Assembly (NCBI GenBank): GCA_001804865.1
Contig: MHBK01000048.1
Location: 4,843 to 68,842, forward strand
Direction of reading: 5' to 3'
Source of the DNA: Lentisphaerae bacterium GWF2_57_35
GTDB taxonomy: Bacteria > Verrucomicrobiota > Kiritimatiellia > CAIQIC01 > GWF2-57-35
DNA: 64,000 nucleotides
The position numbers and the translations under genes are program-made. Of this stretch, positions 1 through 60,795 are shown in pieces. Each line of letters starts with the position of its first letter. Position 1 is the stretch's first letter. A model generated the notes under the pieces. That model had not been told where the DNA came from. It saw nothing but the letters and a program-made list of their open reading frames with translations, and made no database searches.

Positions 1-813
1 GTAGATCGATCTGTTCTATTGGCTTTGGATGGAGTGTATCAGCGGAATGGCGCTTTTAGCCGGGATCACACAAGAATTGTTGTCAGCAACGATTATGTGG
101 TGAACTATGCCGCGCAGCATGACAAGTTGCTCTTTGGCGCCAGCATTCATCCATACCGCCGGGATGCCTTGGATGAACTGGATCGGGTGGCTCAAATGGG
201 CGCCTGTTTGCTCAAGTGGATACCCTCCGCACAAAATATCACGCTGGACGATCCGGCTTGCTACGCGTTTTATGAACGGTTGGCTTCTTGGAAGATGCCT
301 CTTCTGGTTCATACGGGAGTCGAACATAGCTTGCCGACTTTCCAGCACAATTTGAACGATCCTCGCCGTTTGCAGCCTGCATTGGAACGAGGGGTTACTG
401 TTATTGGCGCTCATTGTGGAACGCGAATATTCCTTCATGAAAAATCGTACTACTCGCAATGGAAAAGCATGGCGCTTCAGTATCCAAATTTTTATGGCGA
501 TCTAAGCGCATTCGTTTCTCCTCTTCATATAAACCCCTTGCAGGAGATTTTAGATTCTTCCACTTTGCGATGCAAAATTGTCTTTGGTTCTGATTTTCCA
601 GTGTATTTGATGCCGATATGGTTCGTGTCCAAATTGGGGATAAAGCGCGTTAACGAACTGGGAAAGCTGGAAAATCCTTTTGAAAGAAGCTATTCGACCA
701 TGAAAGCGTTGGGTGTGCCGGACGAAGTATTCGCGCGGGCAGAAAACCTGTTGCGACTCCCACGCGTTGCAGCGAGTCCTGTTGTAAAACGGGCTGAGGA
801 GAGGGCTACATGA
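1..813 (+). CDS. Amidohydrolase_2-like metal-dependent hydrolase, 5' end cut by window edge
   Basis: The frame is open from base 1, with no in-frame stop before the track's TTG at 19. Motifs typical of TIM-barrel amidohydrolases: 'GASIHPYR', 'LLKWIPSAQNI', 'PLLVHTGVEHS', 'VIGAHCG', 'VFGSDFP'. The N-terminal HxH metal motif is absent, consistent with truncation. The stop overlaps the next start (ATGA at 810-813). Confidence 0.6.
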   Translation, partial: VDRSVLLALDGVYQRNGAFSRDHTRIVVSNDYVVNYAAQHDKLLFGASIHPYRRDALDELDRVAQMGACLLKWIPSAQNITLDDPACYAFYERLASWKMPLLVHTGVEHSLPTFQHNLNDPRRLQPALERGVTVIGAHCGTRIFLHEKSYYSQWKSMALQYPNFYGDLSAFVSPLHINPLQEILDSSTLRCKIVFGSDFPVYLMPIWFVSKLGIKRVNELGKLENPFERSYSTMKALGVPDEVFARAENLLRLPRVAASPVVKRAEERAT

Positions 814-1952
814 ACGTCCAAGCCTGGCATCTCCCCTGGGGGAAACGATCGGTTCCGCATGCGGTCTTGGATATTATCCGTGGTTGCAATATCACCTGCA
901 ATGCTTGCTATAATCTGTCTCCGCCTTGCACAAAGAGCCTGGTGCAAATTGAGCAGGATCTGGATTGCCTGATGAAGCGTCGCCAGTTGACTTCTTTGTC
1001 GATTGTCGGAGGCGAACCTCTTTTGCATCCCAACCTCTGCGAGATTATCCGGCGCGTAAAAGCTCGTGGTCTTCATGTAGAGCTATGCACCAATGGGGTG
1101 CTGCTTGATAGCCGGAAGCTTCATGAACTCCAAGCGGCCGGCTTGGATGTGGTTTTTCTTCACATCGAGAGGGGGCAGCAACGATCTGATATGCCAACCC
1201 ATCCAACGAGAGAACAATTATGTGCTCTTTGGGAAGAGAAGACGATTCTGGTTGGAAGTCATGGCCTGGATGTCGGTCTTACGATGACGGCTTCCAGCGA
1301 TCGTTTGGGTGAGGTGAAAGATATCATTCTGTTCACTTTGCAGTCTCCTCACGTCAATTATCTGCTGGTTACCCTTCACCGGGACGTAGGGAGCATTGAT
1401 TTCATCATGGGAGATCTTGATTCCGGCATGCAGGGGCGTCATCAAAAGCCACTTGAACAAAGAGAAGATACGCTGAATACCCAGATCATCTGGGATTATT
1501 TATCTGCAGATTTGAAGTTGAGACCTTTTGCTTATCTCGGATCCAATGTAAGCCTGGAGAATGTTCGTTGGCTTTCATATTTGGTAGGGAGCGTTACGGC
1601 TGGGCAGACAGCCTATCACTCATTGAGGGCCAGCTCTTTTGAGAAGCTGTTTCTGTTCATGAGTTGGATCTTCGGTGGACGTTATCCCATGTATCGCAAG
1701 CAAAGCAGCGTCGCGCTGTTGATTGAATTGTTGCTGAATGGGTTGACCGGCGGCGACTTGGCTGGAAATTTGAGTTTCTTCATGAAGGCGATAAAAGCGA
1801 GGAAATCGACTCGGACCAAGAGGCTGTTGTTTCAATGCCCGGCGGAAGTTGGATCGGATGGACGAATCATTCATTGCATGAACTGTCCCGATGCTGTGGT
1901 TCGAAAGGGGAAGTTGGTTCCTGTTTGTATTTCCGATCGGGTGAGATCCTAA
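810..1952 (+). CDS. Radical SAM enzyme (non-B12 type) with a C-terminal Cys-rich tail
   Basis: Canonical CX3CX2C motif near the N-terminus ('IIRGCNITCNACYN'), followed by 'SIVGGEPLLHP' and 'ELCTNG' as in MoaA/NirJ-like radical SAM cores. The C-terminal 'CPAEVGSDGRIIHCMNCPDAVVRKGKLVPVC' offers four extra Cys, a possible auxiliary cluster. ATGA overlap with the upstream gene. Confidence 0.75.
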   Translation: MNVQAWHLPWGKRSVPHAVLDIIRGCNITCNACYNLSPPCTKSLVQIEQDLDCLMKRRQLTSLSIVGGEPLLHPNLCEIIRRVKARGLHVELCTNGVLLDSRKLHELQAAGLDVVFLHIERGQQRSDMPTHPTREQLCALWEEKTILVGSHGLDVGLTMTASSDRLGEVKDIILFTLQSPHVNYLLVTLHRDVGSIDFIMGDLDSGMQGRHQKPLEQREDTLNTQIIWDYLSADLKLRPFAYLGSNVSLENVRWLSYLVGSVTAGQTAYHSLRASSFEKLFLFMSWIFGGRYPMYRKQSSVALLIELLLNGLTGGDLAGNLSFFMKAIKARKSTRTKRLLFQCPAEVGSDGRIIHCMNCPDAVVRKGKLVPVCISDRVRS

Positions 1953-1968
1953 ACCTGTGAACTTGAAG

Positions 1969-3306
1969 ATGAAAATCACCTTCATACGCCCCAACATGAT
2001 GAACGGAGTGGCAGGCGATGCACTTGAGCCGCTGGTTTTTGCTTTGCTCTCCGGCGTTACGCCCGATGACGTTGAATGTAATCTGTATGATGAACGCATA
2101 GAATCCATCCCATTCGATGAACCGACGGATTTGGTTGCCATGACCGTGGACACCTTTTCCGCCCGGAGGTCTTATCAGATTGCGGGCCATTTCCATCGCA
2201 AGAAAATCCCTGTGGTTATGGGGGGATATCATCCGACGTTGTGCCCTGAAGAAGCGCTGAGCTTTGCCACATCGATTGTGGTGGGCGATGGCGAAGAAGT
2301 TTGGCCCGATGTGGTAGAGGATGCAAAACAAAACGCTTTGAAGCGTGTGTACAAGAGTCCATTCCCGTCATTGGCCGGATTGCGGGTGGATCGGCGCCTG
2401 CTGGCGGGCAAGAAATACCGGCCTCTCAAGCTAGTTCAGTTTGGTCGAGGTTGCCCCCATACCTGTGATTTCTGCTCTATTCATGCCTTTTACGACCGTC
2501 AAACCAGACAGCGGCCGGTATCGGAGGTGGTGGGTGAAATAGAGCATCTCGGGCGAAACTTCATCTTTTTTACCGACGATAATCTGTTTTCAAATCGTGC
2601 AGCAGCAAAAGACCTGATGCGGGCATTGAAATCAATGAACATTCATTGGACATGTCAGGCCAGCCTCGATATAGGAGAGGACCACGACCTTCTGCAACAG
2701 ATGGCTGCCAGTGGATGTATTTCGGTGACAGTGGGCTTTGAGTCCTTGAATCCAGATAATCTCGCCTTGATGAGAAAATCCTGGAACCAGGCGTATGGGC
2801 GGTATGAAGATCTGATAAGTCGGTTCTATGATCATGGAATCATGATCTATGGGACCTTCATTTTTGGCTATGATAACGATACGCCGGATTGCTTTCGTCG
2901 CAGCGTGGAGTTTGCGATAAGATCCCGGTTGTTCCTTGCGAACTTTAATCCGCTGACTCCCACTCCGGGAACGCCGTTGTACGCTCGCCTGCAAAAGGAG
3001 CAAAGGCTTATTCTCGATCCCTGGTGGCTGAGTGCCGATTATCGATATGGAGAGAGCATGTTTTATCCGGCAGGCATGACGGCGGATCAATTGGCAGAGG
3101 GCTGCTACTGGGCTCGTACGGAGTTCAATAAATATGGAAGTATTTTTGCCAGAGCGTTGAATCGGAGTGCGAACATGCGAAGCCTGTATCATGGCGGTAT
3201 ATATTTGGCCGCCAATCTTGTGTCTCGGAAGGAGATTCACAGAAAGCAAGGTGAGCCGTTGGGCGCTCCTGAGCCTCTGGTTCCCCTAATGGATTCAGAG
3301 CCGTGA
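1969..3306 (+). CDS. B12-binding (class B) radical SAM protein, paralogue 1
   Basis: N-terminal Rossmann-like cobalamin-binding-type domain ('MKITFIRPN...DLVAMTVDTFSARRSYQIA...IPVVMGGYHPT'), then the radical SAM motif 'GRGCPHTCDFCSI'. ATG at 1969 preferred over the track's GTG at 1957 because all three paralogues then begin MKIT(F/L)I. Clear paralogy to the next two genes. Confidence 0.8.
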   Translation: MKITFIRPNMMNGVAGDALEPLVFALLSGVTPDDVECNLYDERIESIPFDEPTDLVAMTVDTFSARRSYQIAGHFHRKKIPVVMGGYHPTLCPEEALSFATSIVVGDGEEVWPDVVEDAKQNALKRVYKSPFPSLAGLRVDRRLLAGKKYRPLKLVQFGRGCPHTCDFCSIHAFYDRQTRQRPVSEVVGEIEHLGRNFIFFTDDNLFSNRAAAKDLMRALKSMNIHWTCQASLDIGEDHDLLQQMAASGCISVTVGFESLNPDNLALMRKSWNQAYGRYEDLISRFYDHGIMIYGTFIFGYDNDTPDCFRRSVEFAIRSRLFLANFNPLTPTPGTPLYARLQKEQRLILDPWWLSADYRYGESMFYPAGMTADQLAEGCYWARTEFNKYGSIFARALNRSANMRSLYHGGIYLAANLVSRKEIHRKQGEPLGAPEPLVPLMDSEP

Positions 3307-4637
3307 AAATTACTTTGATAAGACCCAACATAGGAAGGCTGGGGGACGTGCCCTATTTCGATGAGGGGCGGATGGAGCCTTTACAGCTTGGGCTATTGGC
3401 GGCCATGTGTCCTGCGGATTGGGAAGTTCGTCTTGTGGATGATCGTTGCGAACATATTCCCTTTGATGAGCCCACTGATCTTGTCGCCATTACCGTCGAA
3501 GTGTTTACAGCGAGACGCGCCTATGAAATCAGCGAACAATATCGAACGCGCGGGGTCCGGGTTGTTCTTGGCGGATTCCATCCGACGTTGATTCCGGAAG
3601 AAGCCGCTCTTTATGCAGACGCCATTGTGATAGGCGATGCGGAACCCGTTTGGTCTCAAGTTCTCGCCGATGCCAAGGCATGCAATTTGCAGAGCCGGTA
3701 CGACGGCTACACGGGCAAGGTTCAAAACGGGATTCTTCCTCGAAGAGATTTGTATAAAGGGAAGGGGTATCTTCCGATAACACTCATACAATTTAGCCGG
3801 GGTTGTCGATATGCCTGTGAATTCTGCGCCATCAGTGCGTATTTCCAGCAACGTTACACCAGCCGACCGGTCGATGAAGTCGTGCGAGAGATTGAAGCTC
3901 AGGATCGTCAGCTTGTATTCTTTGTGGATGATAACGTAGTGGCAGATCCGGCCATGTCGAAGCAATTGTTTCGCCGACTTATTCCACTTCGGATTAGGTG
4001 GGTAAGCCAGGGAAGCATGGATATGGTTTGGGATTCCGAGTTGATGGATCTGATGTGTGAAAGTGGGTGCCTGGGTAATGTCATTGGATTTGAGTCCATA
4101 ACGCAGGAGTCCCTGACAGGGATGAACAAGGCTCCAAATCTGAAGGGATTTGACCGATATGAAAAAGCCATTCAGATTCTGAAACAGTACGGGCTGCAAA
4201 CATGGGCTGCTTTTACGTTGGGTTGCGATACAGATACGCGCCAAAGCCTCTATGATACTCTCGATTTTGCCGTCCATCACAAATTCACTTTTGCTGCCTT
4301 TAATGTGTTAATGCCTTATTATGGGACTCCTCTTTACAGTAAACTCGCGGCCCAGGGGCGGCTGCTCTTCGACGGAAGATGGTGGCTGCACTCTGGCTAC
4401 CGATTTAATCACGCCGCATTTAAACCAGCGCAAATGTCGCCCGAAGAACTCACCGAGATGGCTTTTGAACTTCGATCTCGCTGGAACAGCGCTTCATCCA
4501 TTCTGAGTCGTTTTTTTGATCTGAAAACCAATATGCGAACCCCTTATCGAATGGCTATTTATTGGATGTACAATCCATTGTTTCGAAAGGAGACTCTGAA
4601 AAAGCAAGGCATGTTTTTGGGGATGGAGCCCGTATGA
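3303..4637 (+). CDS. B12-binding (class B) radical SAM protein, paralogue 2
   Basis: 'MKITLIRPN...DLVAITVEVFTARRAYEIS...VRVVLGGFHPT' followed by 'SRGCRYACEFCAI'. The GTG start overlaps the upstream stop (GTGA at 3303-3306). Confidence 0.8.
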   Translation: MKITLIRPNIGRLGDVPYFDEGRMEPLQLGLLAAMCPADWEVRLVDDRCEHIPFDEPTDLVAITVEVFTARRAYEISEQYRTRGVRVVLGGFHPTLIPEEAALYADAIVIGDAEPVWSQVLADAKACNLQSRYDGYTGKVQNGILPRRDLYKGKGYLPITLIQFSRGCRYACEFCAISAYFQQRYTSRPVDEVVREIEAQDRQLVFFVDDNVVADPAMSKQLFRRLIPLRIRWVSQGSMDMVWDSELMDLMCESGCLGNVIGFESITQESLTGMNKAPNLKGFDRYEKAIQILKQYGLQTWAAFTLGCDTDTRQSLYDTLDFAVHHKFTFAAFNVLMPYYGTPLYSKLAAQGRLLFDGRWWLHSGYRFNHAAFKPAQMSPEELTEMAFELRSRWNSASSILSRFFDLKTNMRTPYRMAIYWMYNPLFRKETLKKQGMFLGMEPV

Positions 4638-5980
4638 AAATTACCTTCATACTTCCCTGCGTAGGAAAGAAAGCCGGTCGAGCATATCCTCGATCATGGC
4701 TGATGGAGCCACTCGCCATTGCGCAACTCGCGGCATTAACCCCGAAGAAATACGATAGGGTGTTTTATGATGATCGCCTTGAGTCGATCCCTTATGATGA
4801 AAAGACGGATTTGGTAGCCATTAGTGTTGAAACCTATACAGCGCGAAGAGCCTACCAAATTGCATCTCATTTCCGAAAAAAGAACATACCGGTAGTCATG
4901 GGTGGGTTTCATGCAACGCTGGCGCCGGATGAGGTGGAGCAGCATGCGGATGTCGTAGTGATGGGCGAGGCTGAGGGCGTCTGGGAATACCTGCTGAGGG
5001 ATTTTGAACAAGGTAATCTTCAAAAGAGATACCAGGCTGAAAAACGTCCGGAGTTGATGTCTATTCTTCCTGATCGATCCATTTACGGCGGACGCCGTTA
5101 TTTGGATTTGGCGCTCGTTGAAACTGGCCGGGGATGTCGTTTCTCTTGCGAGTTCTGTTCCATTGCCGGCTTTTTCAATGGGCGCTATGCGGCGCGTCCC
5201 GTTGATGACGTTGTTCGTGAAATACAAAGATTGAAGACCAAAAGCATCTTTTTTGTCGATGACAACATAGCCGTAGATCGTCAGCGTACGGTCAAACTGC
5301 TTGAAGCCTTGACGTCACTGGGGATTCGTTGGATTGGGCAGGTGAGCATGAGTATTGCCAATGACGACGAACTCTTGGCGTTGTTTTATCGTAGCGGCTG
5401 TCTGGGGCTCTTGATTGGGTTCGAATCTTTTGAAAAAGAGACGTTGGACGCCATGAGGAAACAGGTTAATTGCCACTTTGGCGATTATGATTCTGTTGTT
5501 CAAAACCTGCACAAACACAAGCTGGCCATATATGGCACCTTTGTTTTTGGCTATGACTCGGATACGAATCAGACATTCCAGCGAACCTTGGATTTTGTTG
5601 TGAAAAACAAACTATTTTTTGCCGCCTTTAATCATCTGGTTCCGTTTCCTGGAACACCTCTGTATCAGCGACTGCGGGAGCAGAAACAACTTGTTCAGGA
5701 CGATTGGTGGTTGAGTCCGAGTTACCGGTTTGGCGATGTCGCCCTTAAAACAAAGAATTACTCGGCCCAAGATCTTTCTGATCGATGCCTCCGATTTCGG
5801 AAAGAGTTTTATACGATGAAATCCATTCTTTGGCGAGCGACCAATGTTAAAGCCAACTGCAAAAGCCCATTCATGACGTTGACCTATTTTATGGCGAATT
5901 TGCTTTCGAGGGGCGATGTAGTGGAAAGGCAGGGGCTTCCCCTGGGTTTCGATGATAATCGAAAAGTTGATTCAGAATGA
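4634..5980 (+). CDS. B12-binding (class B) radical SAM protein, paralogue 3
   Basis: 'MKITFILPC...DLVAISVETYTARRAYQIA...IPVVMGGFHAT' followed by 'GRGCRFSCEFCSI'. ATG at 4634 overlaps the upstream stop (ATGA). The track's longer ORF from 4562 would overlap paralogue 2 by 76 nt. Confidence 0.8.
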   Translation: MKITFILPCVGKKAGRAYPRSWLMEPLAIAQLAALTPKKYDRVFYDDRLESIPYDEKTDLVAISVETYTARRAYQIASHFRKKNIPVVMGGFHATLAPDEVEQHADVVVMGEAEGVWEYLLRDFEQGNLQKRYQAEKRPELMSILPDRSIYGGRRYLDLALVETGRGCRFSCEFCSIAGFFNGRYAARPVDDVVREIQRLKTKSIFFVDDNIAVDRQRTVKLLEALTSLGIRWIGQVSMSIANDDELLALFYRSGCLGLLIGFESFEKETLDAMRKQVNCHFGDYDSVVQNLHKHKLAIYGTFVFGYDSDTNQTFQRTLDFVVKNKLFFAAFNHLVPFPGTPLYQRLREQKQLVQDDWWLSPSYRFGDVALKTKNYSAQDLSDRCLRFRKEFYTMKSILWRATNVKANCKSPFMTLTYFMANLLSRGDVVERQGLPLGFDDNRKVDSE

Positions 5981-7077
5981 AATATATTCTGGCAGATCAT
6001 ACGTATGATGCGGCATTGAGAAGGATCATATGCAGCACCTCGATGCCAGGATCTGTACGCATCACTTTTGGTCGGGAGCCCGATTTCTTTTATGGGTTGG
6101 ATGTGCAAGGAAAGCAGAATCAAACCTTGGTCGCATTAGAGGATGGGGTGGTTGTGGGCTTGGGGTGCAGGACCATAAAGCCCGTCTATGTTAATAAGCA
6201 GCGCATAGACCTGGGGTATTTGAACGGATTACGGCTGTTGCCTCATGTTCGACGAAGAATGGCGTTAGCGCGTGGTTATTCTTTTCTCGAAAGGCTCCAT
6301 GCCGACAGATGCGTCCCTGCGTATTTGAGCACGATCGTTGAGGAGAACCATGAAGCGATTTCCTTGTTGACCAGTGGACGAGCCGGTCTTCCAAGGTATG
6401 AGGATTATGGCCAGTATTATACGTATGCCTTGCTTGTTGGAAAGAAACCACGGCGAGTTTCTGGTTGTTGTGACGGGCTTACGATCCTGCCCGGCCATCA
6501 GACTTCAATGAGGGATATTATTGATTTCCTCAACACAACGGGCCGACGTCGGCAATTTTTCCCTGTCTTGGAGGAGTCAGACTTGGGCACGTCGTATTTG
6601 CGTGATTTGCGCCCTGATAATTTCCATGTCGCCATCCAGGGGAATAAGATTGTGGGTGCAGTTGCAAGCTGGGATCAAAATGCTTTTAAGCAGACGATCC
6701 TGAGTGGTTACTCGGGCTGGGCCCGTTTGGTTCAGCCGTTGGCCAGCCGTATATTGTCGCTTGCGGGATGCGGGGCACTTCCCCAACCGGGAACTTGGCT
6801 GAATGTTTGTTATGCCTCATTTCTCTGCGTCGACGGCGATGATTCTCTCATACTTGAACGTTTGGTTGACGCCCTCTGTACAAAGGCTCGTTTCGCAGGC
6901 CATCAGTTTATCCTGCTAGGCTTTCATGAAAATGATCCATTGCGCAACGCGATGCAAAAGTTTCTAACCATTCAGTATAGAAGCCGGGTTTATCTGGTTT
7001 ACTGGGATGATGGCTTGAATTTCTGTCAGACCATCGATAAAAAGCAATGTCCTTATCTTGAGCTTGGAGCGTTGTAA
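5977..7077 (+). CDS. Conserved-looking hypothetical protein, tentatively a tandem GNAT-like acyltransferase fold
   Basis: ATGA overlap with the upstream gene. 366 aa. Segments such as 'VALEDGVVVGLGCRTIKPVYVNKQRIDLGYLNGLRLLPHVRRR' and 'IQGNKIVGAVASWDQNAF' look like GNAT beta-strand cores. I cannot name any catalytic motif with certainty. Confidence 0.4.
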   Translation: MKYILADHTYDAALRRIICSTSMPGSVRITFGREPDFFYGLDVQGKQNQTLVALEDGVVVGLGCRTIKPVYVNKQRIDLGYLNGLRLLPHVRRRMALARGYSFLERLHADRCVPAYLSTIVEENHEAISLLTSGRAGLPRYEDYGQYYTYALLVGKKPRRVSGCCDGLTILPGHQTSMRDIIDFLNTTGRRRQFFPVLEESDLGTSYLRDLRPDNFHVAIQGNKIVGAVASWDQNAFKQTILSGYSGWARLVQPLASRILSLAGCGALPQPGTWLNVCYASFLCVDGDDSLILERLVDALCTKARFAGHQFILLGFHENDPLRNAMQKFLTIQYRSRVYLVYWDDGLNFCQTIDKKQCPYLELGAL

Positions 7078-7081
7078 GGCT

Positions 7082-7810
7082 ATGTCTTTTTTAAATAATC
7101 TGAGAGTCTACTCAAAAATTCTCTTTCCAAGAATCAGTGGGTGCACGCCCGCTGAACGATTGGAGAGCTTTTATTCAGGACAAGCAGAGTTCTTTGATGA
7201 TTTTCGAAAAGGGATGCTTCATGGGCGAGAAGAGCTGATGCGTGCGATCCCTGTGCCGAAAGACGGCATCTGGGTGGACATGGGTGGGGGGACTGGGAAT
7301 AATTTGCATTATCTTGGAGATAAATTAAAGGATTTGAGAAGAATCTATTTAGTAGATCTTTGTGCTTCTCTTCTTTCCGTCGCCCGACAACGAGTCGAGA
7401 AAATGAAGTGGCGAAATGTGGAGATCATCAAGGCCGATATAACTTCATACAAGCCTCCCGAAGAGTATGCCGATGTCGTTACATTCTCGTATTCTTTGAG
7501 CATGGTATCGAATTGGCTTGCTGCTTTGAACAACGCTGAGATCATCCTGCAGCCAGGAGGATTTGTTGGGGTCGTGGACTATTATATTTCTCAGAAACAT
7601 CCTGCGGCAGATAATGAGCGCCATTCATGGGTTTCACGCCAGTTCTGGGCTTATTTCTTCAAGCATTGCGATGTACATCTTTCCCCTGATCAACTGCCTT
7701 ATCTGTGTTCAAATTACGAAAAACAGCATCTTTTTGAAGGGAGAGCCCGCATACCCTACTTCCCTTGGCTCAAACCTCCGTATTTCCGTTTCATTGGGCG
7801 GAAACTATAA
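7082..7810 (+). CDS. Class I SAM-dependent methyltransferase
   Basis: Motif I 'WVDMGGGTGNN', followed by 'IYLVDLCASLL' (acidic motif II region) and 'VVTFSYSLSMV'. ATG at 7082 lies 4 nt after the upstream stop. The track's TTG at 7058 would overlap the upstream gene. Confidence 0.75.
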   Translation: MSFLNNLRVYSKILFPRISGCTPAERLESFYSGQAEFFDDFRKGMLHGREELMRAIPVPKDGIWVDMGGGTGNNLHYLGDKLKDLRRIYLVDLCASLLSVARQRVEKMKWRNVEIIKADITSYKPPEEYADVVTFSYSLSMVSNWLAALNNAEIILQPGGFVGVVDYYISQKHPAADNERHSWVSRQFWAYFFKHCDVHLSPDQLPYLCSNYEKQHLFEGRARIPYFPWLKPPYFRFIGRKL

Positions 7811-7834
7811 ACAGGCAAAGTGGATACTTGATAT

Positions 7835-8554
7835 ATGATAGAACGGTCCATTACGCGAATAGACAAACTGTCTGATGCCGATAAAGAGATGATGTTTCAT
7901 CTCCATCGGAAATATTTCTGCCATGTCGTTCATGAAATATTTCTCAAGGATATGAACGAAAAAGAATGGGCCATTGTCTTGCGGGAAGGGCGGAATATCG
8001 TTGGCTTTTCATCGCTGATGATGCTTCATCATTTACTCGATGGCGAGAAGGTGAGCTTCATATTCAGCGGCGACACCATCGTAGATCAACGATATTGGCA
8101 AACCAGTGCTATTGCCGGAAGCTTTGGACATTACATGCTCCGGATGATTGCTGAACACCGGCATAACCTCTATTGGTTTCTGATTTCAAAAGGCTACAGA
8201 ACCTATCGCTTTCTCCCTGTATTCTTCAACCAATTCTATCCCATCCATAACGCTCCAACCCCAGATGCATATCAACGACTTTTGAATTTGGCCGCTACGT
8301 ATAAATTTGGACATGCCTATGATCCAGAGACGGGGATTATCAAGATGGGCAGAAAAAAAGATTGGCTTAGGCCCGTAATGTGCGAAATTCCTGAATCACG
8401 TCAGAATGATCCTCATGTTGGGTTTTTCTTGCAGAGGAATCCTACCTACAGCCAAGGCGACGAGTTGGCCTGCATTACCCAGGTAGCGGAGTGTAATTTC
8501 AATAAATATGCCTGGAGGGTCATTAGACAGAATCACGTGCGGTGGGATGAATAA
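7835..8554 (+). CDS. Hypothetical protein, tentatively GNAT-like N-acyltransferase / acyl-amino-acid-synthase-like
   Basis: 239 aa. 'WAIVLREGRNIVGFSSLMML...VSFIFSGDTIVDQRYWQ' resembles a GNAT-type core. The assignment is weak. Its stop region overlaps the GH3 start by 8 nt (ATGAATAA). Confidence 0.4.
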   Translation: MIERSITRIDKLSDADKEMMFHLHRKYFCHVVHEIFLKDMNEKEWAIVLREGRNIVGFSSLMMLHHLLDGEKVSFIFSGDTIVDQRYWQTSAIAGSFGHYMLRMIAEHRHNLYWFLISKGYRTYRFLPVFFNQFYPIHNAPTPDAYQRLLNLAATYKFGHAYDPETGIIKMGRKKDWLRPVMCEIPESRQNDPHVGFFLQRNPTYSQGDELACITQVAECNFNKYAWRVIRQNHVRWDE

Positions 8555-10211
8555 AGCCGGGCAATTCATCAGTGTATTTTGTGCCAATCTAGCATGGTTC
8601 CTATCCTGTTTACCTCGGTTGCTTCTTTTTATCCTGGCCTCGTTTAGTATCAAGCGTCAGCAGGAAAAGATCCTTCGCGGCATCATGAAACCCAATGCCA
8701 ATTCTGCATACGGAATGAAATACGGATTTGGATCTATACGGTCGTCGAATGACATTCGACAAATTCCCTTGTCGGAATATGAAGAATACAGTCCGTTTAT
8801 CGAACAGCTGCGCAATGGCGGGTCTTCATGTCTGACGGTTGAGCCCATTCATCTATTGCAACCTACCAGCGGATCGGTTAGTGCAACGAAATTGATTCCT
8901 TATACTCAATCCTTGAAGAAGCAGTTTGCAGCGGCCATTGATCCTTGGATCGGGTTTACCTATCTTCATTATCCGAGAATATTTGGAGGGCGTCATTATT
9001 GGTCCATCAGTCCTTCGACGCATCATCACATGGCAGGGCTACAAAAGATTCCGGTGGGATTTGCAGAGGATGCCGAATATTTAGGGGTTGTACAAAGACA
9101 GATGGCGAAAACATTGTTTGCCGTTCCCGCCGAAATCTCACGAGTCTCCGATCCTGAAGCTTTTCAATACTTGACGCTCTTATTCCTGATTGGGGAAAAG
9201 CATTTGCGGCTGATTTCTGTCTGGCATCCCTCGTTTCTTGCCATTTTGGTCGATGCCATGGCCGGACAGTTTCCTGATTTCATTCGTGACATCGGGTCCG
9301 GTGTCATCAACCAAGAGCTCAAGTTGGCTTCACCACTCCGGCAGATTTTCGAATCGCAATTACAGCCTGATCCAGTGCGAGCTGCTGAACTTGCCTGCCT
9401 GGATTGCGGCGCGCCTGGTTTTCCCATGAAGGTTTGGCCTGAATTGCATTTGATCAGTTGTTGGACTGAAGGGTTATCCGACTTGTGGGTTTCGAAACTT
9501 AGACGTTGGTTCCCGCTAGCCTTCATTCAAGGCAAAGGGTTGGTGGCCACGGAGGGCATTGTTTCGATCCCCATTGACTCCTCGCGAAAAGCTTGTGCCG
9601 TGGGATCCCATTTTTATGAGTTCGTGGACAGTCAGTCGGGCGGAATCAAGCGTGTTTGGGAACTAGAGAATGGACACGAATATAGCGTGGTCCTGACAAC
9701 GGGAGGAGGCTTGTATCGGTACCGGCTTCACGATTTGGTCCAGGTTACTGGACATTATCATCAGGTCCCGTGTTTTGAGTTTATTGCAAAAGACAATCTG
9801 GTTTCAGACCTTGTAGGCGAAAAACTCAATTCGCGACATGTAGAGGAAAGTATTCGTCGAGTGGAGGAGATCTGCCATGTCTGTTTCGAATTTGCTCTTT
9901 TGGCTCCTGGAAATAGCAAAGACTATCCACGATATGACTTGTATGTGCAGCCCGATTCAAACGGATTTGTTGACTTCCCTGCCGTCGCGGTGCGGATGGA
10001 AGAAGAACTAAAACGGAATTATCACTATCATCATGCGCGTCAACTCGGCCAGCTTCAGCCTTTGAAGGTGTTTCACATTTCCGGCCAAGCGGATGTTCTC
10101 TATCGCCGTCACATGATTGCACGGGGAATGAAGCCTGGTGATATTAAAATTTACGGCCTCTCCCTGGATTCGTCATGGGCTTCTATTTTCAATGGCGAGT
10201 ATGTGACGTAA
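8547..10211 (+). CDS. GH3-family (auxin-responsive-promoter family) acyl-acid amido synthetase-like adenylating enzyme
   Basis: GH3 hallmarks: 'LLQPTSGSVSATKLIPYT' (TSG..K.IP nucleotide motif), 'TTGGGLYRYRLHDLVQVTG' (the GLYRYR.GD motif of GH3 proteins) and 'LVSDLVGEKL'. Start at ATG 8547 (MNKAGQF...) keeps the conserved N-terminal 'QQEKILRGIM...YGF' region. Confidence 0.7.
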   Translation: MNKAGQFISVFCANLAWFLSCLPRLLLFILASFSIKRQQEKILRGIMKPNANSAYGMKYGFGSIRSSNDIRQIPLSEYEEYSPFIEQLRNGGSSCLTVEPIHLLQPTSGSVSATKLIPYTQSLKKQFAAAIDPWIGFTYLHYPRIFGGRHYWSISPSTHHHMAGLQKIPVGFAEDAEYLGVVQRQMAKTLFAVPAEISRVSDPEAFQYLTLLFLIGEKHLRLISVWHPSFLAILVDAMAGQFPDFIRDIGSGVINQELKLASPLRQIFESQLQPDPVRAAELACLDCGAPGFPMKVWPELHLISCWTEGLSDLWVSKLRRWFPLAFIQGKGLVATEGIVSIPIDSSRKACAVGSHFYEFVDSQSGGIKRVWELENGHEYSVVLTTGGGLYRYRLHDLVQVTGHYHQVPCFEFIAKDNLVSDLVGEKLNSRHVEESIRRVEEICHVCFEFALLAPGNSKDYPRYDLYVQPDSNGFVDFPAVAVRMEEELKRNYHYHHARQLGQLQPLKVFHISGQADVLYRRHMIARGMKPGDIKIYGLSLDSSWASIFNGEYVT

Positions 10212-10449: not shown

Positions 10450-10535
10450 TGGTGCCGGAGGAGGGAGTCGAACCCTCACGCCCGTGAAGGCGCTGGATTT
10501 TGAGTCCAGTGCGTCTGCCATTCCGCCACTCCGGC
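10450..10535 (-). tRNA. tRNA-Leu, anticodon CAA, CCA encoded
   Basis: The minus-strand read is GCCGGAG-UG-GCG..CGC-A-CUGGA-CUCAAAA-UCCAG-long variable arm (CGCCUUCACGGGCGUG)-GAGGG-UUCGACU-CCCUC-CUCCGGC-A-CCA. It has a 7-bp acceptor stem, a T-loop UUCGA, a class II long variable arm and the anticodon loop C-U-CAA-A-A. Confidence 0.92.
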
Positions 10536-10696: not shown

Positions 10697-11596
10697 ATGT
10701 CTGTAACCGTTGTGCCGTATAGTGGCTGGGAACGAAATCTGCGATTGGCAAACGATCAGGTCGAACTGATTGTCACGTTGGAGGTCGGGCCGCGCATCGT
10801 TCGGTATGGTTTTATCGGCGAAAAAAACGTTTTTGGCGAGTTTGCCGGGCAATTGGGGCAAAAAGGCGAATCGAAATGGCAAATTCGGGGCGGGCATCGT
10901 TTCTGGATCGCGCCGGAACAAAAACCCCTGACGTACGAACTGGACAATGGGCCGGTCGAATTTGAAGAGATCGAAGGCGGCGTGCGTTTGATCCAGCCCC
11001 AGGGGCCGTTAAGCGGCATTCAGAAGACGATGGACATCCGTCTGCTGGATGCCAATGGACGTGTTTCGGTTCGGCACTCTTTGACCAATCGAACAGACAA
11101 GGCCATCGCCTGTTCTCCTTGGGCTTTGAGCGTGATGGCTAAAAAGGGTCTCGCGATTATCCCGCTGCCGGATGTGGTTCCTCATGACGAGCGCTTGACG
11201 CCGAATCAGAACTGGACGCTTTGGAGTTACACCGACCTGGCCGATCAGCGATATCAGATTGGGTCGTCTCTCATACTGATCCGGCAGGACCCTGCGCGGG
11301 GGCCCACCAAAATCGGATTGGCCCAGCGCGAAGGTTGGATTGGCTATCTTGCGGACGGCTATCTGTTCGTTAAACATTTCCAACGGTTGGAAAACGCCTC
11401 GTATCCCGACTGCAATGTCAATTGCGAGATCTACACGGACGAAGATATTCTCGAGTTGGAAACGTTGGGCCCCCTGACGTCGCTGGAACCGGGGCAGTCG
11501 GTTCAGCACGAGGAGCAATGGGCTTTGTTCAAGGATGTGCCGGATTGCACGTGCGAAGAGGAAGTGAATGCGGACGTGCTGCCGTATGTGATGTAG
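10697..11596 (+). CDS. Hypothetical protein, possibly DUF4380 / aldose-epimerase-like beta-sandwich
   Basis: Strong SD (AAAGGAGG) 7 nt upstream of the ATG. 'GGHRFWIAPE' and the overall beta-rich pattern resemble DUF4380 / mutarotase-like proteins. It sits first in the plus-strand EPS gene row. Confidence 0.4.
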   Translation: MSVTVVPYSGWERNLRLANDQVELIVTLEVGPRIVRYGFIGEKNVFGEFAGQLGQKGESKWQIRGGHRFWIAPEQKPLTYELDNGPVEFEEIEGGVRLIQPQGPLSGIQKTMDIRLLDANGRVSVRHSLTNRTDKAIACSPWALSVMAKKGLAIIPLPDVVPHDERLTPNQNWTLWSYTDLADQRYQIGSSLILIRQDPARGPTKIGLAQREGWIGYLADGYLFVKHFQRLENASYPDCNVNCEIYTDEDILELETLGPLTSLEPGQSVQHEEQWALFKDVPDCTCEEEVNADVLPYVM

Positions 11597-11677: not shown

Positions 11678-14119
11678 ATGAAACGGTTGTACGCAAATCT
11701 TTTGCAGCCGGTGTGGATGAGTTGTCTGCTGCTCGGTTGCTTGCCTGTCTCTGTCCTTGCTCAAGAAACGCTCTACGATTATGAAACGCCGGAGCCGGCT
11801 CAAGCTCGATGTGCGGCTCCTGTCTTTACGAATGCCATTACACTTTCTACCGGCGTACAAGCCGAGGCCAAGGACCTTGCGCGGGCGAGGGGATTGATCC
11901 AAAGCGACGAGCTCGCGGAGGGCTGCGCGCTGCTGGAAAAGATCGTCGAGGTTCAGCCGACTTATATTCCGGCCTGGAGGCTGCTGGGCGAAACGTACTG
12001 GCAAAATGGGCGGCAGGAGGATGCGATCCGCCTGTGGGAATTGTTGCGTCCGATCGTTCCTTCAGAGTTGTTCGTGCACAATTCTTTGGGCGATGCCCAC
12101 CGTTCGAGAAACGAGTTGGAGCCGGCGATCGAGGCCTATCGCCGTAGTTTGCAGGTCGATGCCGACCAGCCCGAAATCGTGTTCCAATTGGGCCGCGTAC
12201 TGCGATGGGCGGGGCATTTGGAGGAGGCGATTGCGGTCTTGCAGCCGCTGTGCCAAACCCATCCGGAGCGCATCGATATCAAAGCCGAACTGGCGCGCTC
12301 CTACTTGACAAGCCGTCAGTACGACCGAGCCCTGCCGCTCTGGAACGAATTGGTTGAAGCGGCTCCGGCCCATGCCGAATACGAGACGTATCGCACGTTG
12401 GCCTTGTTTTACGCGGGGCATCGCGAGGAGGCCATTGGTCATGCCCAAGCCTTGATCAGAGATCATCCCGCCAACAGCCGGCTCTTATCGTTATTGGCGG
12501 ATGCGGCCGAGTACAGCGGCGACTTGTTCAGTGCGGCGACGTTTCTGGAGCAAATCTACAGTGCTTCGGGGCAGGACATGAAGAGCCGTCGCCGCATTCT
12601 GAATCGATTGATTCCGTTGTATGACCGTGGTTACGGCCAACAGGCGGAGCGGTTTCCCCTGGACCGGCTGTGCGAGCTCGTTCGCGGCTATATTCAAAGC
12701 GATCCGATGAATGCCGACATGTATCTGGCGTTGGGGGATCTGTTGGTTCTCGACAGCCGTTATGAAGAAGCGATTAGCGCGTATCGTCATGTGCTCGATG
12801 AATTGAACTCCTGCAATATACGCGCCCATCGCGGTCTGTTCGAACTGTTGTTGCGTCAGGGCGACTATGAGGGCGCCGAGCAGGAACTGTCTTCCATTCG
12901 TCGCTTTAATCCCCATGATCCCTATTTGTATTCCATCCAGGCCCGGTGGTATGCGGAGCAATCTCGCTATAAGGAGGCGTTCGAGGCGTTGGACAAGCTG
13001 GAGCAATCGGGCTGGAACGGCTCCCTGGCCGTCTTGCTTTATCACGGACTCAGCAGCAGCGACGATTCGGAAATACTGCCCGTGACGCAATTCCAGGAGC
13101 AACTGAGTTTATTGAAGGAGGCCGGTTTTCGATTTATCACGGCGGCGCAGATTCCCGGATATTTCGAGCAAGCCCGGCGCATGCGCGAGCTGTTCGGCGG
13201 GATGGGGGTCGAGCGGGTGGCCTGCGTTACGTTTGACGATGCCCGTCGCGATGCCATGCGCCTGGGTACGCCGGTGGCGGAAGAATTGGACCTTGTTTTC
13301 TCCATGCATGTGCCGGTGGGTTTTGTGGAGGAGCAGCACCCCTTTATCAGCACCTTGGATATGTTGAAGGAATTCGAGGCAACCGGACATTGGATCATGG
13401 GCAGCCACTTGGTGGACGCCCATAAAGGCTATCCGTTGGATGCCGAAGGACATCAGGGGTACCCGATGGCCAATCGCGTATGGATTGCCGAAGCGCACAA
13501 GACGGAGTCCGAAGCGCAATATGTTCAGCGCGTTGCCGCGGAATATGGCCAATCGCGGCGCTTCATGGATGCCTATCTCCATACGGCCCGCACGACGCCG
13601 TTTGTGGCGTATCCCTTCGGCGATATCGGCCAGCAAACCGTCTGCAACGAAATCGAGTCCGTGCCGATCAATTTGCGCGAATGCGGACGGCATTACCAAG
13701 TCGGCTTTATTCAGAGCCCATTCGGATACGCCGTGCAGGGCGACAACCCCTTGCTGTATCAACGCATCGAACCGCATCGGTGGGAAAACGGCAGCAATCT
13801 GGTCGTTCGCGTGCTGGAGAATCATCCGGTCTTGCTGGCCCGGCGCCTCCGCGCGGAATATGCGGCGCGCGCGGGCAAAAAGTATCTGGCGCGGGATAAT
13901 TTGGAAGCGCTTCAGAAGGATGGCTATCCGCCGTCTTCGCTGGAAAAAACGCGCCTCTACGTTGAGCGCATATTGGGACGAAGAATCTCGCTGCCGGAAC
14001 CGGCGGACGAAGATCCGGCGGACCCGCCCCAGCGGCCGACGGTTCCCGGGACCGAGGCCCCTCGTGAAGATCTTCAGCCTTCGCGACAGGAGCTTTTGCG
14101 GGAGAATCTCGGATTCTGA
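11678..14119 (+). CDS. Secreted (possibly lipo-) protein: N-terminal TPR array + C-terminal CE4 polysaccharide-deacetylase-like domain (PgaB-role candidate)
   Basis: Signal peptide 'MKRLYANLLQPVWMSCLLLGCLPVSVLAQE' with a possible lipobox LLGC. About 400 aa of TPR-like repeats ('AWRLLGETYWQNGRQEDAIRLWE', 'NSLGDAHRSRNELEPAIEAYRRSLQVD'). CE4 motif-1 'ACVTFDDARRD', then 'FSMHVPVG' and 'FVAYPFGDIG'. Paralogue of the next gene. Confidence 0.75.
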   Translation: MKRLYANLLQPVWMSCLLLGCLPVSVLAQETLYDYETPEPAQARCAAPVFTNAITLSTGVQAEAKDLARARGLIQSDELAEGCALLEKIVEVQPTYIPAWRLLGETYWQNGRQEDAIRLWELLRPIVPSELFVHNSLGDAHRSRNELEPAIEAYRRSLQVDADQPEIVFQLGRVLRWAGHLEEAIAVLQPLCQTHPERIDIKAELARSYLTSRQYDRALPLWNELVEAAPAHAEYETYRTLALFYAGHREEAIGHAQALIRDHPANSRLLSLLADAAEYSGDLFSAATFLEQIYSASGQDMKSRRRILNRLIPLYDRGYGQQAERFPLDRLCELVRGYIQSDPMNADMYLALGDLLVLDSRYEEAISAYRHVLDELNSCNIRAHRGLFELLLRQGDYEGAEQELSSIRRFNPHDPYLYSIQARWYAEQSRYKEAFEALDKLEQSGWNGSLAVLLYHGLSSSDDSEILPVTQFQEQLSLLKEAGFRFITAAQIPGYFEQARRMRELFGGMGVERVACVTFDDARRDAMRLGTPVAEELDLVFSMHVPVGFVEEQHPFISTLDMLKEFEATGHWIMGSHLVDAHKGYPLDAEGHQGYPMANRVWIAEAHKTESEAQYVQRVAAEYGQSRRFMDAYLHTARTTPFVAYPFGDIGQQTVCNEIESVPINLRECGRHYQVGFIQSPFGYAVQGDNPLLYQRIEPHRWENGSNLVVRVLENHPVLLARRLRAEYAARAGKKYLARDNLEALQKDGYPPSSLEKTRLYVERILGRRISLPEPADEDPADPPQRPTVPGTEAPREDLQPSRQELLRENLGF

Positions 14120-14197
14120 TTTAGAAAGACATTCAAATCGAATTGGCCTATACTGCACAAATTCACATTGTCGAAACAAGCTATGGGGAATAAACCA

Positions 14198-17100: not shown

Positions 17101-17521
17101 AGAAGCCCGCGACGATTATTGGACGCCTTACCAGTTGAATCGATTTTATCTGGAAGCATCGCTCCGTCATACCTACCAGCGAACCTATTATAACTTGCAG
17201 GCGCGGACCGGACTGGGCAAACAGAATGTCCGCCCGGATGCCGACGAAAAACACCAGGCCCGTCTGGTTCAGTTAAACCAGGATATCGCAACGGCCCGAC
17301 AGCAGCGCTGGCCGCAAAGCGACATCGATGCGCTGATTCAGGAACGCGACCAACTGATCGTCAATCCGCCGGAAGAAGAATGGAAACCCGTTTTCGGCTT
17401 GGCCGCTTCCGTCCGCAGCAAGCTGGGCGAACACTGGGAATTGCACGGCGAAGTCTCCGTCAACAAAGTGCCGGAGTATTACGAAGCCACGGTGGCGGGC
17501 GATATTACCTTCCGATTTTAA
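14198..17521 (+). CDS. Secreted TPR array + CE4 deacetylase-like domain + C-terminal outer-membrane beta-barrel (PgaA/PgaB-like roles fused)
   Basis: Signal peptide 'MVKWIAAFVLLVGFEMVHADE'; alternative starts at 14168 and 14183. TPRs ('AWGQLGWCYWNNGRQDKAIELWE'). CE4 module 'AVIITFDDARLDSFRLATPVFKDLGIPFSMHVPVG' and 'FVAYPMGDIG'. The last ~330 aa have alternating hydrophobic/aromatic strands ('HMYAFGGLNLTP', 'GVKGSFTFPSGN', 'LRLGLRYAYTT') and end in 'DITFRF', a typical OMP C-terminal aromatic signature. Confidence 0.7.
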   Translation: MVKWIAAFVLLVGFEMVHADEAFESPAMPEPSITADPNNPDVKPESPVNGLFEAANRDMAATNWPAAITKLEQVIEQDPSLLSAWGQLGWCYWNNGRQDKAIELWETLRRINPKLPMAYNLLGMAYMANGEQPKAIEFFRKSLELDPDQEPVEYSIARLSRWEGRFEDSISILRRQLDKNEDRLDIRLELARAYLNNWQFEEALPLWEKLAQSQPDNLEYRLYCAECRLRTGQADEALPEIEQILAEDPNHTSALLIMADRAEYGERPADAIPYLRRLVAETTELQLRQKYRMRLIDLYVRLNRDKPLEYPLNEAIGILKDYIRDDPNNTDALLLLGELLSMDNQFADAQQKFTIVLRDFNPNNMRAQRGLFEAYAAEKNFAEADKHLKRVEAFNPQDPYNHYLRARYEAARGRFGRAYQELDKLEAAGQQGSVLVLLFHGLTTSEWTEIPSVRLFREQLMALQKAGFRFLTPMDLRDYFSSLERINDSRSERTPNRAVIITFDDARLDSFRLATPVFKDLGIPFSMHVPVGNIERKDPFLASWKQLADYRQQGWVMGSHLYEASTPVPGERGMMVRPLTSLIRLNPANRMETLDEFNQRIHMEYDLSSRLMQSYLGEKPSFVAYPMGDIGQETYSDVPEAVTVNLQSASTNYAVGFIQSVFGYAVNGDNPLLYQRHELGRHVSASNTVNEVLRMHPVFLARRMRAELATLEGKQYKALKILERLKEDGYPEQSYNDLNTYVHTKLSHKFVPPPSVDNVSKGPFNLDIKKPYVGARAHYFQDNLERKNYHMYAFGGLNLTPNIVAEGQAGWGQLKQGRQDLDDGSSLPEIEVDETSAGVKGSFTFPSGNLLSGDFMLRNFGEPVNEVEPTYGIEGQFKPVLPLDLTGRFEHDVEPSARTVVRDMVTYDQWMANGVFSIRDWWDVWGSGQYYLYSDDNNRLHGAVSSQWLIWEDIGLRLGLRYAYTTSEEARDDYWTPYQLNRFYLEASLRHTYQRTYYNLQARTGLGKQNVRPDADEKHQARLVQLNQDIATARQQRWPQSDIDALIQERDQLIVNPPEEEWKPVFGLAASVRSKLGEHWELHGEVSVNKVPEYYEATVAGDITFRF

Positions 17522-53205: not shown

Positions 53206-53217
53206 GGGAGAATCTTC

Positions 53218-53952: not shown

Positions 53953-53962
53953 GGGGAGAGTC

Positions 53963-55861: not shown

Positions 55862-55883
55862 AGATTAGGGAGGATTACGCATT

Positions 55884-57834: not shown

Positions 57835-57841
57835 CAGGTTC

Positions 57842-59804: not shown

Positions 59805-59809
59805 GGCGG

Positions 59810-60775: not shown

Positions 60776-60795
60776 GCTGATGTATTTCCTCCTGA

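Follow-up and report, generated by a model that had tools for sequence, protein, structure and literature searches.

A GH3 and two-GNAT gene triad conserved across bacterial phyla, with swappable radical SAM and oxygenase modules and a possible N-acyl-amide product

We analysed 64,000 nucleotides of DNA (hereafter the window) from Lentisphaerae bacterium GWF2_57_35 of the Kiritimatiellia (contig MHBK01000048.1, positions 4,843 to 68,842), whose first 10,211 nucleotides hold most of a cluster of genes for radical S-adenosylmethionine (SAM) enzymes, a GH3-family ligase and two proteins of GNAT (Gcn5-related N-acetyltransferase) fold, here termed U239 and U366. The conserved core of the cluster is the triad of the GH3 and the two GNAT genes, usually accompanied by one pair of radical SAM genes with a B12-binding domain, of which one member lies outside the window. 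Around this core, tailoring modules swap by lineage: radical SAM enzymes in anaerobic lineages, and Rieske, desaturase, hydroxylase, P450, PAP2 and esterase-like proteins in aerobic ones. The product that we favour, with a little less than an even chance of being right, is a tailored N-acyl amide of lipoamino-acid-like or amino-lipid-like type.

Results and discussion

The triad is conserved across more than 12 phyla

The listing of open reading frames (ORFs) and direct reading of the junctions gave nine + strand genes, tightly packed and arranged head to tail, within window positions 1-10211, followed directly by a tRNA gene:

1..813, +, 3' part of an Amidohydro_2 gene (PF04909, Pfam E 2e-12), cut at the 5' end
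810..1952, +, radical SAM enzyme without a B12 domain, 380 aa (PF04055 and Fer4_12)
1969..3306, +, B12a, radical SAM enzyme with a B12-binding domain, 445 aa (PF04055 and PF02310, the latter at 31.4 bits)
3303..4637, +, B12b, radical SAM enzyme with a B12-binding domain, 444 aa, GTG start (PF02310, 34.2 bits)
4634..5980, +, B12c, radical SAM enzyme with a B12-binding domain, 448 aa (PF02310, 37.0 bits)
5977..7077, +, U366, predicted tandem-GNAT-fold protein, 366 aa (AlphaFold2 and Foldseek)
7082..7810, +, class I SAM-dependent methyltransferase, 242 aa (Methyltransf_11, _25, _23 and UbiE-like matches)
7835..8554, +, U239, predicted GNAT domain with a C-terminal extension, 239 aa (AlphaFold2 and Foldseek)
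8547..10211, +, GH3-family protein, predicted adenylate-forming acyl acid amido synthetase, 554 aa counted from the ATG at 8547 (PF03321, PF23571, PF23572)
10450..10535, -, tRNA-Leu(CAA), directly downstream of the cluster and marking a GC boundary

When the profile of U239, the marker protein of the system, was run against one genome per species, relatives were found in at least 579 species genomes from more than 12 phyla, including Planctomycetes-Verrucomicrobia-Chlamydiae (PVC) bacteria, Acidobacteriota, Bacteroidota, Desulfobacterota, Cyanobacteria and Proteobacteria, and an exhaustive profile search returned 2,115 clusters at 50% identity. Gene content was compared in 41 complete loci, defined by at least 6 kb on both sides. 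GH3 is present in 40 of these and U366 in 38, and 30 have two or more B12-type radical SAM genes, the usual order being B12d-like, B12c-like, U366, U239 and GH3 (B12d is the off-window partner of B12c, described below). U366 lies directly upstream of U239 in 52/61 cases, and a stop/start overlap of 4 or 8 nt couples U239 translationally to GH3 in 39 of 59 adjacent pairs. Identity matrices (mirror-tree analysis) give r = 0.80-0.84 for the members of the triad and r = 0.5-0.67 between the triad and the B12 pair, and B12c and B12d themselves co-evolve (r = 0.84, pairwise-identity matrices). Since this core is co-conserved across more than 12 phyla, the gene arrangement is not due to chance; the biosynthetic operon proposed in the original prediction, made from the sequence of the window, is supported, and it is co-conserved.

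U239 and GH3 moreover occur as single polypeptides in four of the top 150 representative 50%-identity clusters, from independent samples. Two of these (L087:814-3174 and L088:3653-5881) are proteins of 742-788 aa with an N-terminal U239 GNAT followed by a complete GH3. Such polypeptides are either Rosetta-stone fusions or indel artefacts at the 4-/8-nt overlap.

U239 homologues without GH3 or U366 within 10 kb were seen in three loci (L034, L069 and L072, from Synechococcales and unclassified metagenome-assembled genomes, MAGs), so that in some lineages U239 may act independently of GH3; in L069 and L072 a Rieske oxygenase gene directly follows U239. Azospirillum chromids (H5-H12 of the plasmid collection) carry distant U239-like ORFs with ~22% identity at 95% coverage.

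Layout and boundaries of the cluster

The window genes are joined by stop/start overlaps (ATGA at 810, GTGA at 3303, ATGA at 4634 and ATGA at 5977), by intergenic gaps of 16 nt (1952/1969), 4 nt (7077/7082) and 24 nt (7810/7835) and, between the last two genes, U239 and GH3, by an 8-nt overlap, ATGAATAA, at 8547-8554. All eight junctions had been predicted exactly. The accompanying count of ten genes was one too many, as eight junctions delimit nine genes and the parts named in the same prediction also sum to nine. Pfam and NCBIfam agreed with the enzyme classes proposed for the amidohydrolase, the radical SAM proteins, the methyltransferase and GH3, and the operon does start beyond the window, as had been suggested. 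An 86.5-kb metagenomic contig (L001), which is the same contig as that of the window and identical over the overlap, adds upstream the full-length Amidohydro_2 gene (334 aa, L001:4700-5704), a Hexapep acyltransferase gene, a SnoaL/DUF4440 gene and a fourth B12-type radical SAM gene with a DUF4070 domain (B12d, L001:1892-3343). No precursor gene, for which an upstream extension had been advised, was found in this part of the contig. A pnuC and nadR-like pair upstream in L001 was rejected as part of the operon, as it is not conserved beside the cluster elsewhere, and we therefore take the full cluster to be 12 genes (B12-type radical SAM/DUF4070, SnoaL, Hexapep, Amidohydro_2, radical SAM, three B12-type radical SAM, U366, methyltransferase, U239 and GH3), of which the window holds the 3' nine.

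The GC content of the cluster is 48.6% (1-10211), compared to 55.8% for the rest of the window (10700-64000). In L001 the low-GC stretch runs to the contig end, pnuC and nadR-like genes included, and, abutting tRNA-Leu as it does, it resembles an island gained by horizontal transfer. Scans for promoters and terminators where the cluster begins and ends gave nothing above shuffled expectation, and Rfam searches of four clusters at gathering thresholds returned tRNA only, with no cobalamin riboswitch nearby. A 295-aa ORF inside the B12b gene (3393-4280, -), without independent support, was treated as a shadow ORF.

The GH3 protein and the two GNAT-fold proteins

All three Pfam domains of the cluster GH3 lie above the gathering threshold (150.5, 64.3 and 27.2 bits; cut-off 23.6), and plant GH3 structures match it at E 5e-18. 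Its motifs are strongly conserved among 66 clade members: TSG..K (G in 100%, K in 96%), KGLxATE (T and E in 100%), YRYxxxD (R, Y and D in 100%) and DxxGEK (100%). The protein is predicted from these sequence features to form amides in an ATP-dependent manner. Residues 10-36 make up a hydrophobic N-terminal segment; as a clade-wide membrane anchor this was discarded, only 13/66 members having it, and it is a subclade feature. Assignment as the lyso-ornithine lipid synthetase OlsH (NCBIfam NF052613) was likewise rejected, with 23.1 bits against a 620-bit equivalog cut-off and a match to the C-terminal region only. Given how far this GH3 is from OlsH, substrate transfer by homology is weak.

The original prediction had listed two GNAT-like unknowns, and neither protein has a significant Pfam match; the structural models point to a GNAT with a C-terminal extension and to a tandem GNAT. 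The U239 model (AlphaFold2 pLDDT, the predicted local distance difference test, 95.7) has a GNAT domain at about residues 1-135 and a conserved C-terminal extension of ~100 residues, with an invariant motif, WFLISKGYRTYRFLP. Its Foldseek matches include AAC(2')-Ia and NatD (E 4e-6), and Pfam, NCBIfam and PDB sequence (profile) searches gave no match. The U366 model (pLDDT 93.5) is a tandem GNAT, whose best full-length Foldseek matches are N-myristoyltransferases, MAB_4324 (template modelling score, TM, 0.62-0.66) and Eis-like proteins at E about 1e-12 to 3e-13. In sequence searches U366 matched only Acetyltransf_1, at 19.6 bits and so under the 20.7 cut-off, with no NCBIfam family and nothing significant in the PDB profile search. 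By their modelled folds, both proteins are members of the GNAT superfamily. All of the at least 171 homologues of U366, and every named member among the 437 close homologues of U239, are annotated as hypothetical. The two were also compared as possible recent internal duplicates, and this was rejected: hhalign gave only a weak match of the GNAT core, at 34% probability.

The radical SAM enzymes

The cluster encodes four B12-type radical SAM enzymes and one plain one, and the CxxxCxxC motif is intact in all five proteins (four in the window plus off-window B12d). The B12-type proteins have the architecture of class B radical SAM enzymes, CxxxCxxC plus an N-terminal domain of B12-binding type, although B12a falls slightly under the Pfam cut-off (PF02310 at 31.4 bits, just below 32.1); B12d, with its DUF4070, scores 39.2 bits. 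B12a has the motif CPHTCDFC, is 41-43% identical to B12b and B12c, and has orthologues only in some loci, such as L011, L015 and a Citrobacter portucalensis plasmid whose B12b-type protein is 56% identical to B12b. B12a and B12b are extra paralogues; the in-window member of the conserved pair is B12c, which in most loci lies directly upstream of the triad and whose partner is B12d. The non-B12 enzyme has CNITCNAC at residue 26 and a Cys-rich C-terminus, and its NCBIfam matches are all far under cut-off.

No named B12-type radical SAM family in NCBIfam came near its cut-off, the scores against cut-offs being 109/481 for BchE, 98-101/578 for HpnJ, 97/600 for PhpK, 88/360 for TIGR04072 (ladderane-type) and 65/360 for the MgmA type. 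Among solved relatives the nearest is AprD4, a protein that binds no cobalamin; next come QCMT/MgmA (9ccb, a glutamine C-methyltransferase) and then TokK and CysS. Since QCMT/MgmA, TokK and CysS are methylases, methylation by the cluster enzymes is plausible; cobalamin use by the cluster enzymes is putative. The multiple C-methylations originally proposed go further than this, with AprD4 as the nearest solved relative and no family cut-off approached. With HpnP/HpnR/HpnJ, GrsA/B, BchE, QCMT/MgmA, TokK and CysS, whose targets are lipids and other unactivated carbons, the cluster enzymes share the B12-binding-like Rossmann domain and the CxxxCxxC core. They differ from the named class B enzymes in forming a conserved, co-evolving pair, and their reaction may be methylation, cyclisation or some other chemistry. 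Class B enzymes let anaerobes carry out C-H chemistry for which aerobes use oxygenases (BchE versus AcsF).

Accessory genes and lineage-specific tailoring modules

The remaining cluster genes are much more sporadic. The original prediction had taken the whole gene set as one pathway; GH3, the two GNATs and B12c stand as its core, whereas the amidohydrolase, the methyltransferase, the non-B12 radical SAM enzyme, B12a and B12b proved accessory. Among the 41 complete loci the non-B12 radical SAM gene occurs in ten, SnoaL in nine, Hexapep in five and Amidohydro_2, a gene that travels with Hexapep and the non-B12 radical SAM gene, in two; a Hexapep, Amidohydro_2 and radical SAM module recurs in L003, L030, L038 and L068. 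The class I methyltransferase, which meets no NCBIfam cut-off, was found at the similarity of the window gene in 1/41, and other methyltransferase types (for example CMAS-like) in some loci of aerobic type. PF04909 is a family rich in decarboxylases, hydratases and lactonases, and the role in release or recycling first proposed for the amidohydrolase found no support. The Hexapep acyltransferase has two N-terminal transmembrane-like segments.

Beside the triad in other loci we found Rieske/VanA_C oxygenases (24 loci), FA_desaturase paralogues (16 and 9), FA_hydroxylase (7), P450 (7), AurF-like diiron proteins (6), PAP2 (11), a ~146-aa membrane protein (12), a MATE pump (6, in Acidobacteriaceae) and, in 11 loci of aerobic type, an esterase/lipase-like alpha/beta-hydrolase (PDB 5d8m, E 8e-11); a CMAS-like methyltransferase, a JmjC/cupin protein and an Mpo1-like (2-hydroxy-fatty-acid dioxygenase) domain occur in individual loci. 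The 41 complete loci divide into 20 with radical SAM enzymes only (in Victivallales, Sumerlaeia, Bacteroidales, Desulfococcaceae, Sedimentisphaerales and a Clostridiales MAG), nine with O2-dependent enzymes only (in Acidobacteriaceae, Sericytochromatia, a gammaproteobacterium and an Elusimicrobia MAG), 11 with both and one with neither. The B12 pair tends to be missing where a Rieske oxygenase is found (Fisher p = 0.0012, for loci that are not phylogenetically independent). Kiritimatiellia and Verrucomicrobiota, to which the window belongs and in which the AccC encoded there has homologues of 78-82% identity, are a largely anaerobic lineage.

Genes for a precursor peptide, polyketide synthase (PKS), nonribosomal peptide synthetase (NRPS), ketosynthase (KS) or carrier protein are neither present in the 12-gene cluster nor recurrent in the ~80 related loci, among which squalene-hopene cyclase, HpnH, squalene/phytoene synthase and polyprenyl genes do not recur either. 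Small ORFs (20-75 aa) conserved across phyla were also absent from the loci examined. The lack of a precursor for peptides made ribosomally and then post-translationally modified (RiPPs) and of PKS/NRPS, hopanoid and isoprenoid genes, first remarked for part of the window, thus extends to the full cluster and to these loci.

Cultured carriers

Cultured strains that carry the system turned up when the plasmid collection was searched by tblastn. The mobilizable IncFIB/IncFII plasmid NZ_CP134684.1 of C. portucalensis 64A:C (51417-62583, L090) holds a radical SAM-rich cluster with genes for U239, GH3, B12d, B12c, U366, B12a, B12b, PAP2, SnoaL and a further radical SAM enzyme. The 56% identity of its B12b-type enzyme to that of the window points to horizontal spread and, as U239 is only 33% identical between the two, the modules have different histories. 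This cluster adjoins an alpha-2-macroglobulin/DUF2300/DUF2135 gene set, and complete E. coli genomes hold no copy of a cluster of its type. In Acinetobacter baumannii X4-300 (L089, NZ_CP064203.1, ~1506905-1517800, with the triad and efflux genes at ~1509021-1516700) the triad is interleaved with an HlyD-type membrane fusion protein (MFP), an MFS pump and a TolC-like outer-membrane efflux protein (OEP), with an amidase and a SurE-like phosphatase gene alongside and no tailoring enzymes; the accession, 3.97 Mb and chromosome-sized, is labelled a plasmid. Burkholderia arboris MEC_B345 (NZ_CP101525.1, ~1788517-1795920) has a Rieske and desaturase version of the cluster. The copies on a mobilizable enterobacterial plasmid and in A. 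baumannii place the cluster in tractable, clinically relevant hosts.

A tailored N-acyl amide as the favoured product

The acyl-amino-acid-like or lipid-like product of the original prediction is also the reading best supported by the neighbouring genes. By analogy with OlsH, GH3 would take a carboxylic acid in its free form, most probably a fatty acid, convert it to an acyl-adenylate and couple it to an amine or amino acid. U239 and U366 would carry out acyl transfers dependent on acyl-coenzyme A (CoA) or acyl carrier protein (ACP) on the same scaffold, as a second acylation or N-capping, to give an N-acyl amide, lipoamino-acid-like or amino-lipid-like. Without any need for oxygen, the radical SAM enzymes would next functionalise unactivated C-H positions, through methylation or some other radical reaction, and the class I methyltransferase, the presumably membrane-anchored Hexapep acyltransferase, the SnoaL-like protein and Amidohydro_2 would add lineage-specific decorations. 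In aerobic lineages the triad product would instead be decorated by Rieske, diiron desaturase/hydroxylase, P450 and AurF-like oxygenases, and often exported. The lipid-type neighbours (FA_desaturases, FA_hydroxylase, CMAS-like, Mpo1-like, PAP2 and the esterase/lipase-like hydrolase) count for such a product, as does the likeness of the U366 model to long-chain N-myristoyltransferases; the hydrophobic GH3 N-terminus, the transmembrane-like segments of Hexapep and the recurrent exporters count for membrane association or export.

The cluster is built from known superfamilies, and its partial analogue is OlsHI. OlsH, the only characterised bacterial GH3, ligates a free fatty acid to ornithine with ATP (PMC12493201). 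In the OlsH/OlsI(/OlsG) ornithine-lipid pathway of Singulisphaera acidiphila a bacterial GH3 likewise shares an operon with an acyltransferase, there also with an N-methyltransferase, and the amide is formed, with neither CoA nor ACP, from a free fatty acid activated by ATP (PMC12493201). OlsH and the cluster GH3 have the same three nucleotide-binding motifs, and the alpha/beta-hydrolase fold class, to which the O-acyltransferase OlsI belongs, recurs in the aerobic variants of the cluster, where the hydrolase, related to carboxyl esterases and lipases, is analogous to OlsI. Among the cluster's 12 genes there is no alpha/beta-hydrolase; GH3 is partnered here by two proteins of GNAT fold, of which one is coupled or fused to it, and OlsHI for its part includes neither exporters nor tailoring by radical SAM, Rieske, desaturase or P450 enzymes. 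Plant GH3 enzymes (JAR1, GH3.5/3.6/3.12, PBS3) belong to the same family and have the same three-domain build and adenylation motifs; the cluster GH3 is set apart from them by low identity, a bacterial operon, GNAT coupling or fusion and, in part of the clade, the hydrophobic N-terminus. GNAT-fold acyltransferases that make N-acyl amino acid lipids are known from OlsB/OlsA, OlsF, GlsB/GlsA and the NAS/FeeM type, and OlsF, a fused two-step synthase, is a precedent for a coupled or fused U239-GH3 (see also PMC12971839). Unlike in the OlsB type, the amide step in the cluster would presumably be catalysed by the adenylating GH3, and not proceed from acyl-ACP. With N-myristoyltransferase, MAB_4324 and Eis-like proteins U366 shares the two-GNAT-domain fold alone (TM 0.55-0.66, 8-14% identity), a peptide substrate being without evidence.

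Several observations weigh against a lipid-like N-acyl amide. The GH3 is very distant from OlsH (23 bits versus 620), the GNATs have no sequence relationship to OlsB or the N-acyl-amino-acid-synthase families (no Pfam or NCBIfam match), and the nearest solved relative of the B12-type enzymes, AprD4, makes no use of cobalamin. Most of the proteins that the window's cluster encodes are predicted to be soluble, and the hydrophobic GH3 N-terminus is found in just 13/66 clade members. The FA_desaturase and FA_hydroxylase families also hold carotenoid and sterol enzymes, and Rieske/VanA_C, AurF-like and P450 partners are equally typical of aromatic and terpenoid chemistry. The radical SAM/oxygenase pattern is confounded by phylogeny, six of the nine loci with O2-dependent enzymes only being from related Acidobacteriaceae, and the fusion ORFs could in principle stem from single-base assembly errors at the 4-/8-nt overlaps.

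Some of these points, notably the solubility of most cluster proteins, would suit a small non-lipid amide made for export (a signal, osmolyte, chelator or antibiotic), for instance an amino acid, dipeptide or polyamine that is N-acylated with a short or aromatic acid. Here U239 would N-cap an amino acid, GH3 would join the carboxylate of the latter to a second amine, and radical SAM enzymes or oxygenases would tailor the result. Ngg of N-acetylglutaminylglutamine amide (NAGGN) synthesis is a GNAT-ligase fusion to whose architecture U239-GH3 could be likened, and plant GH3 enzymes take aromatic, jasmonate and isochorismate-type acids. Exporters recur (MATE, and the MFP-MFS-TolC-like set of A. 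baumannii, where no lipid-tailoring gene is present), and Rieske/VanA_C, AurF-like, P450, SnoaL and Amidohydro_2 proteins are common in aromatic and small-molecule pathways. We nevertheless consider such a product rather unlikely, as membrane-lipid enzyme families recur beside the triad, GH3 and Hexapep have hydrophobic N-termini, U366 resembles long-chain N-myristoyltransferases, and the sole characterised bacterial GH3 uses fatty acids (PMC12493201). The non-lipid amide and the lipoamino-acid-like product overlap if what is made is a secreted lipoamino acid.

Tailoring of a lipid of polycyclic or polyprenyl type, for example a hopanoid, a sterol, a carotenoid acid or a compound of quinone type, with GH3 amidating a terpenoid carboxylate or amino-terpenoid and the B12-type enzymes acting like HpnP/HpnR/HpnJ, appears improbable. 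The family names that suggest it, HpnJ (101 bits) and HpnR for B12d, SdmA (sterol 4-beta-methyl monooxygenase, 56 bits) for the Rieske protein, CrtR for the FA_desaturase and albaflavenone and pentalenene oxygenases (285 and 238 bits) for the P450, are weak NCBIfam matches, all far under the family cut-offs, and the HpnH model likewise scored far under its own. FA_hydroxylase does belong to the sterol-desaturase/CrtZ superfamily, but the ~80 loci show no recurrent squalene/phytoene synthase, cyclase, HpnH or polyprenyl gene. The cluster is, moreover, common in Victivallales, Kiritimatiellia, Bacteroidales and Sumerlaeia and present on an enterobacterial plasmid, and none of these groups, nor the enterobacteria, is to our knowledge noted for hopanoids or sterols.

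The N-myristoyltransferases that head the full-length structural matches of U366 also raise the prospect of acylation and radical modification of a ribosomal peptide or protein N-terminus encoded elsewhere, in a RiPP-like or N-myristoyltransferase-like system, and the weak NCBIfam matches of the B12-type enzymes do include the RiPP enzyme ApyD and the protein methylase MgmA/QCMT, with 9ccb as second-best PDB relative. The tandem-GNAT likeness is, however, generic, with Eis-like proteins, MAB_4324 and sugar N-acetyltransferases scoring equally; no small ORF conserved across phyla was found within the clusters or next to them, genes for a protease, for leader binding (RRE) or for ABC-maturation do not recur, and we know of no GH3 that acts on peptides. 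We regard this explanation as very improbable. That the cluster is a chance juxtaposition or a decaying, horizontally acquired island without coherent function, as its GC content, its position against a tRNA-Leu gene (as is often the case for mobile islands) and the related cluster on an IncF plasmid might suggest, is scarcely credible, given that all nine ORFs are intact with conserved catalytic motifs, that the stop/start overlaps are preserved and that the core keeps its gene order in more than 12 phyla and co-evolves.

The original statement that the cluster is not a described pathway held up in NCBIfam and the literature: no rSAM (radical SAM), GNAT, methyltransferase or GH3 protein of the cluster met an equivalog cut-off among the curated families (Pfam, NCBIfam), and the library of papers searched gave no account of the cluster, only the OlsH work and reviews surfacing. 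If the product is amino-lipid-like, the cluster would represent a fourth way of making such lipids, with a mechanism distinct from the others, assign a role to a large clade of bacterial GH3 proteins, and provide new substrates for class B radical SAM chemistry, most members of which have no known reaction. The swap of radical SAM enzymes and oxygenases offers a natural experiment on how one scaffold would be tailored with and without oxygen. A bolder and doubtful proposal is that the triad and its swappable modules make amide-linked lipids or exported lipoamino acids of a new class that spans phyla, the carbon skeleton being methylated or otherwise remodelled by class B radical SAM enzymes under anoxic and by Rieske/diiron oxygenases under oxic conditions. 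If so, there would be an unrecognised duality of oxygen-dependent and oxygen-independent pathways and a possible origin for those lipid biomarkers of sediments and guts, branched or functionalised, that lack an explanation, and the coupled or fused GNAT-GH3 would be a new type of two-step amide synthase.

Other features of the window

The remainder of the window is ordinary chromosome (CysRS, HolB, AccC). A DUF4380 protein (10697-11596, +), with 290 bits against the TTE1925-family mutarotase model (cut-off 550), is unrelated to the cluster and not conserved beside it elsewhere. Just downstream of the operon are three very large proteins of 813, 1117 and 1468 aa (11678-14119, +; 14168-17521, +; 17780-22186, -), apparent paralogues with tetratricopeptide (TPR) repeats and a PgaB/NodB-like polysaccharide deacetylase region. 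Further on, a 930-aa ORF (44446-47238, -) has GH1-like glycosidase and TuaH-like glycosyltransferase regions, an unusual fusion.

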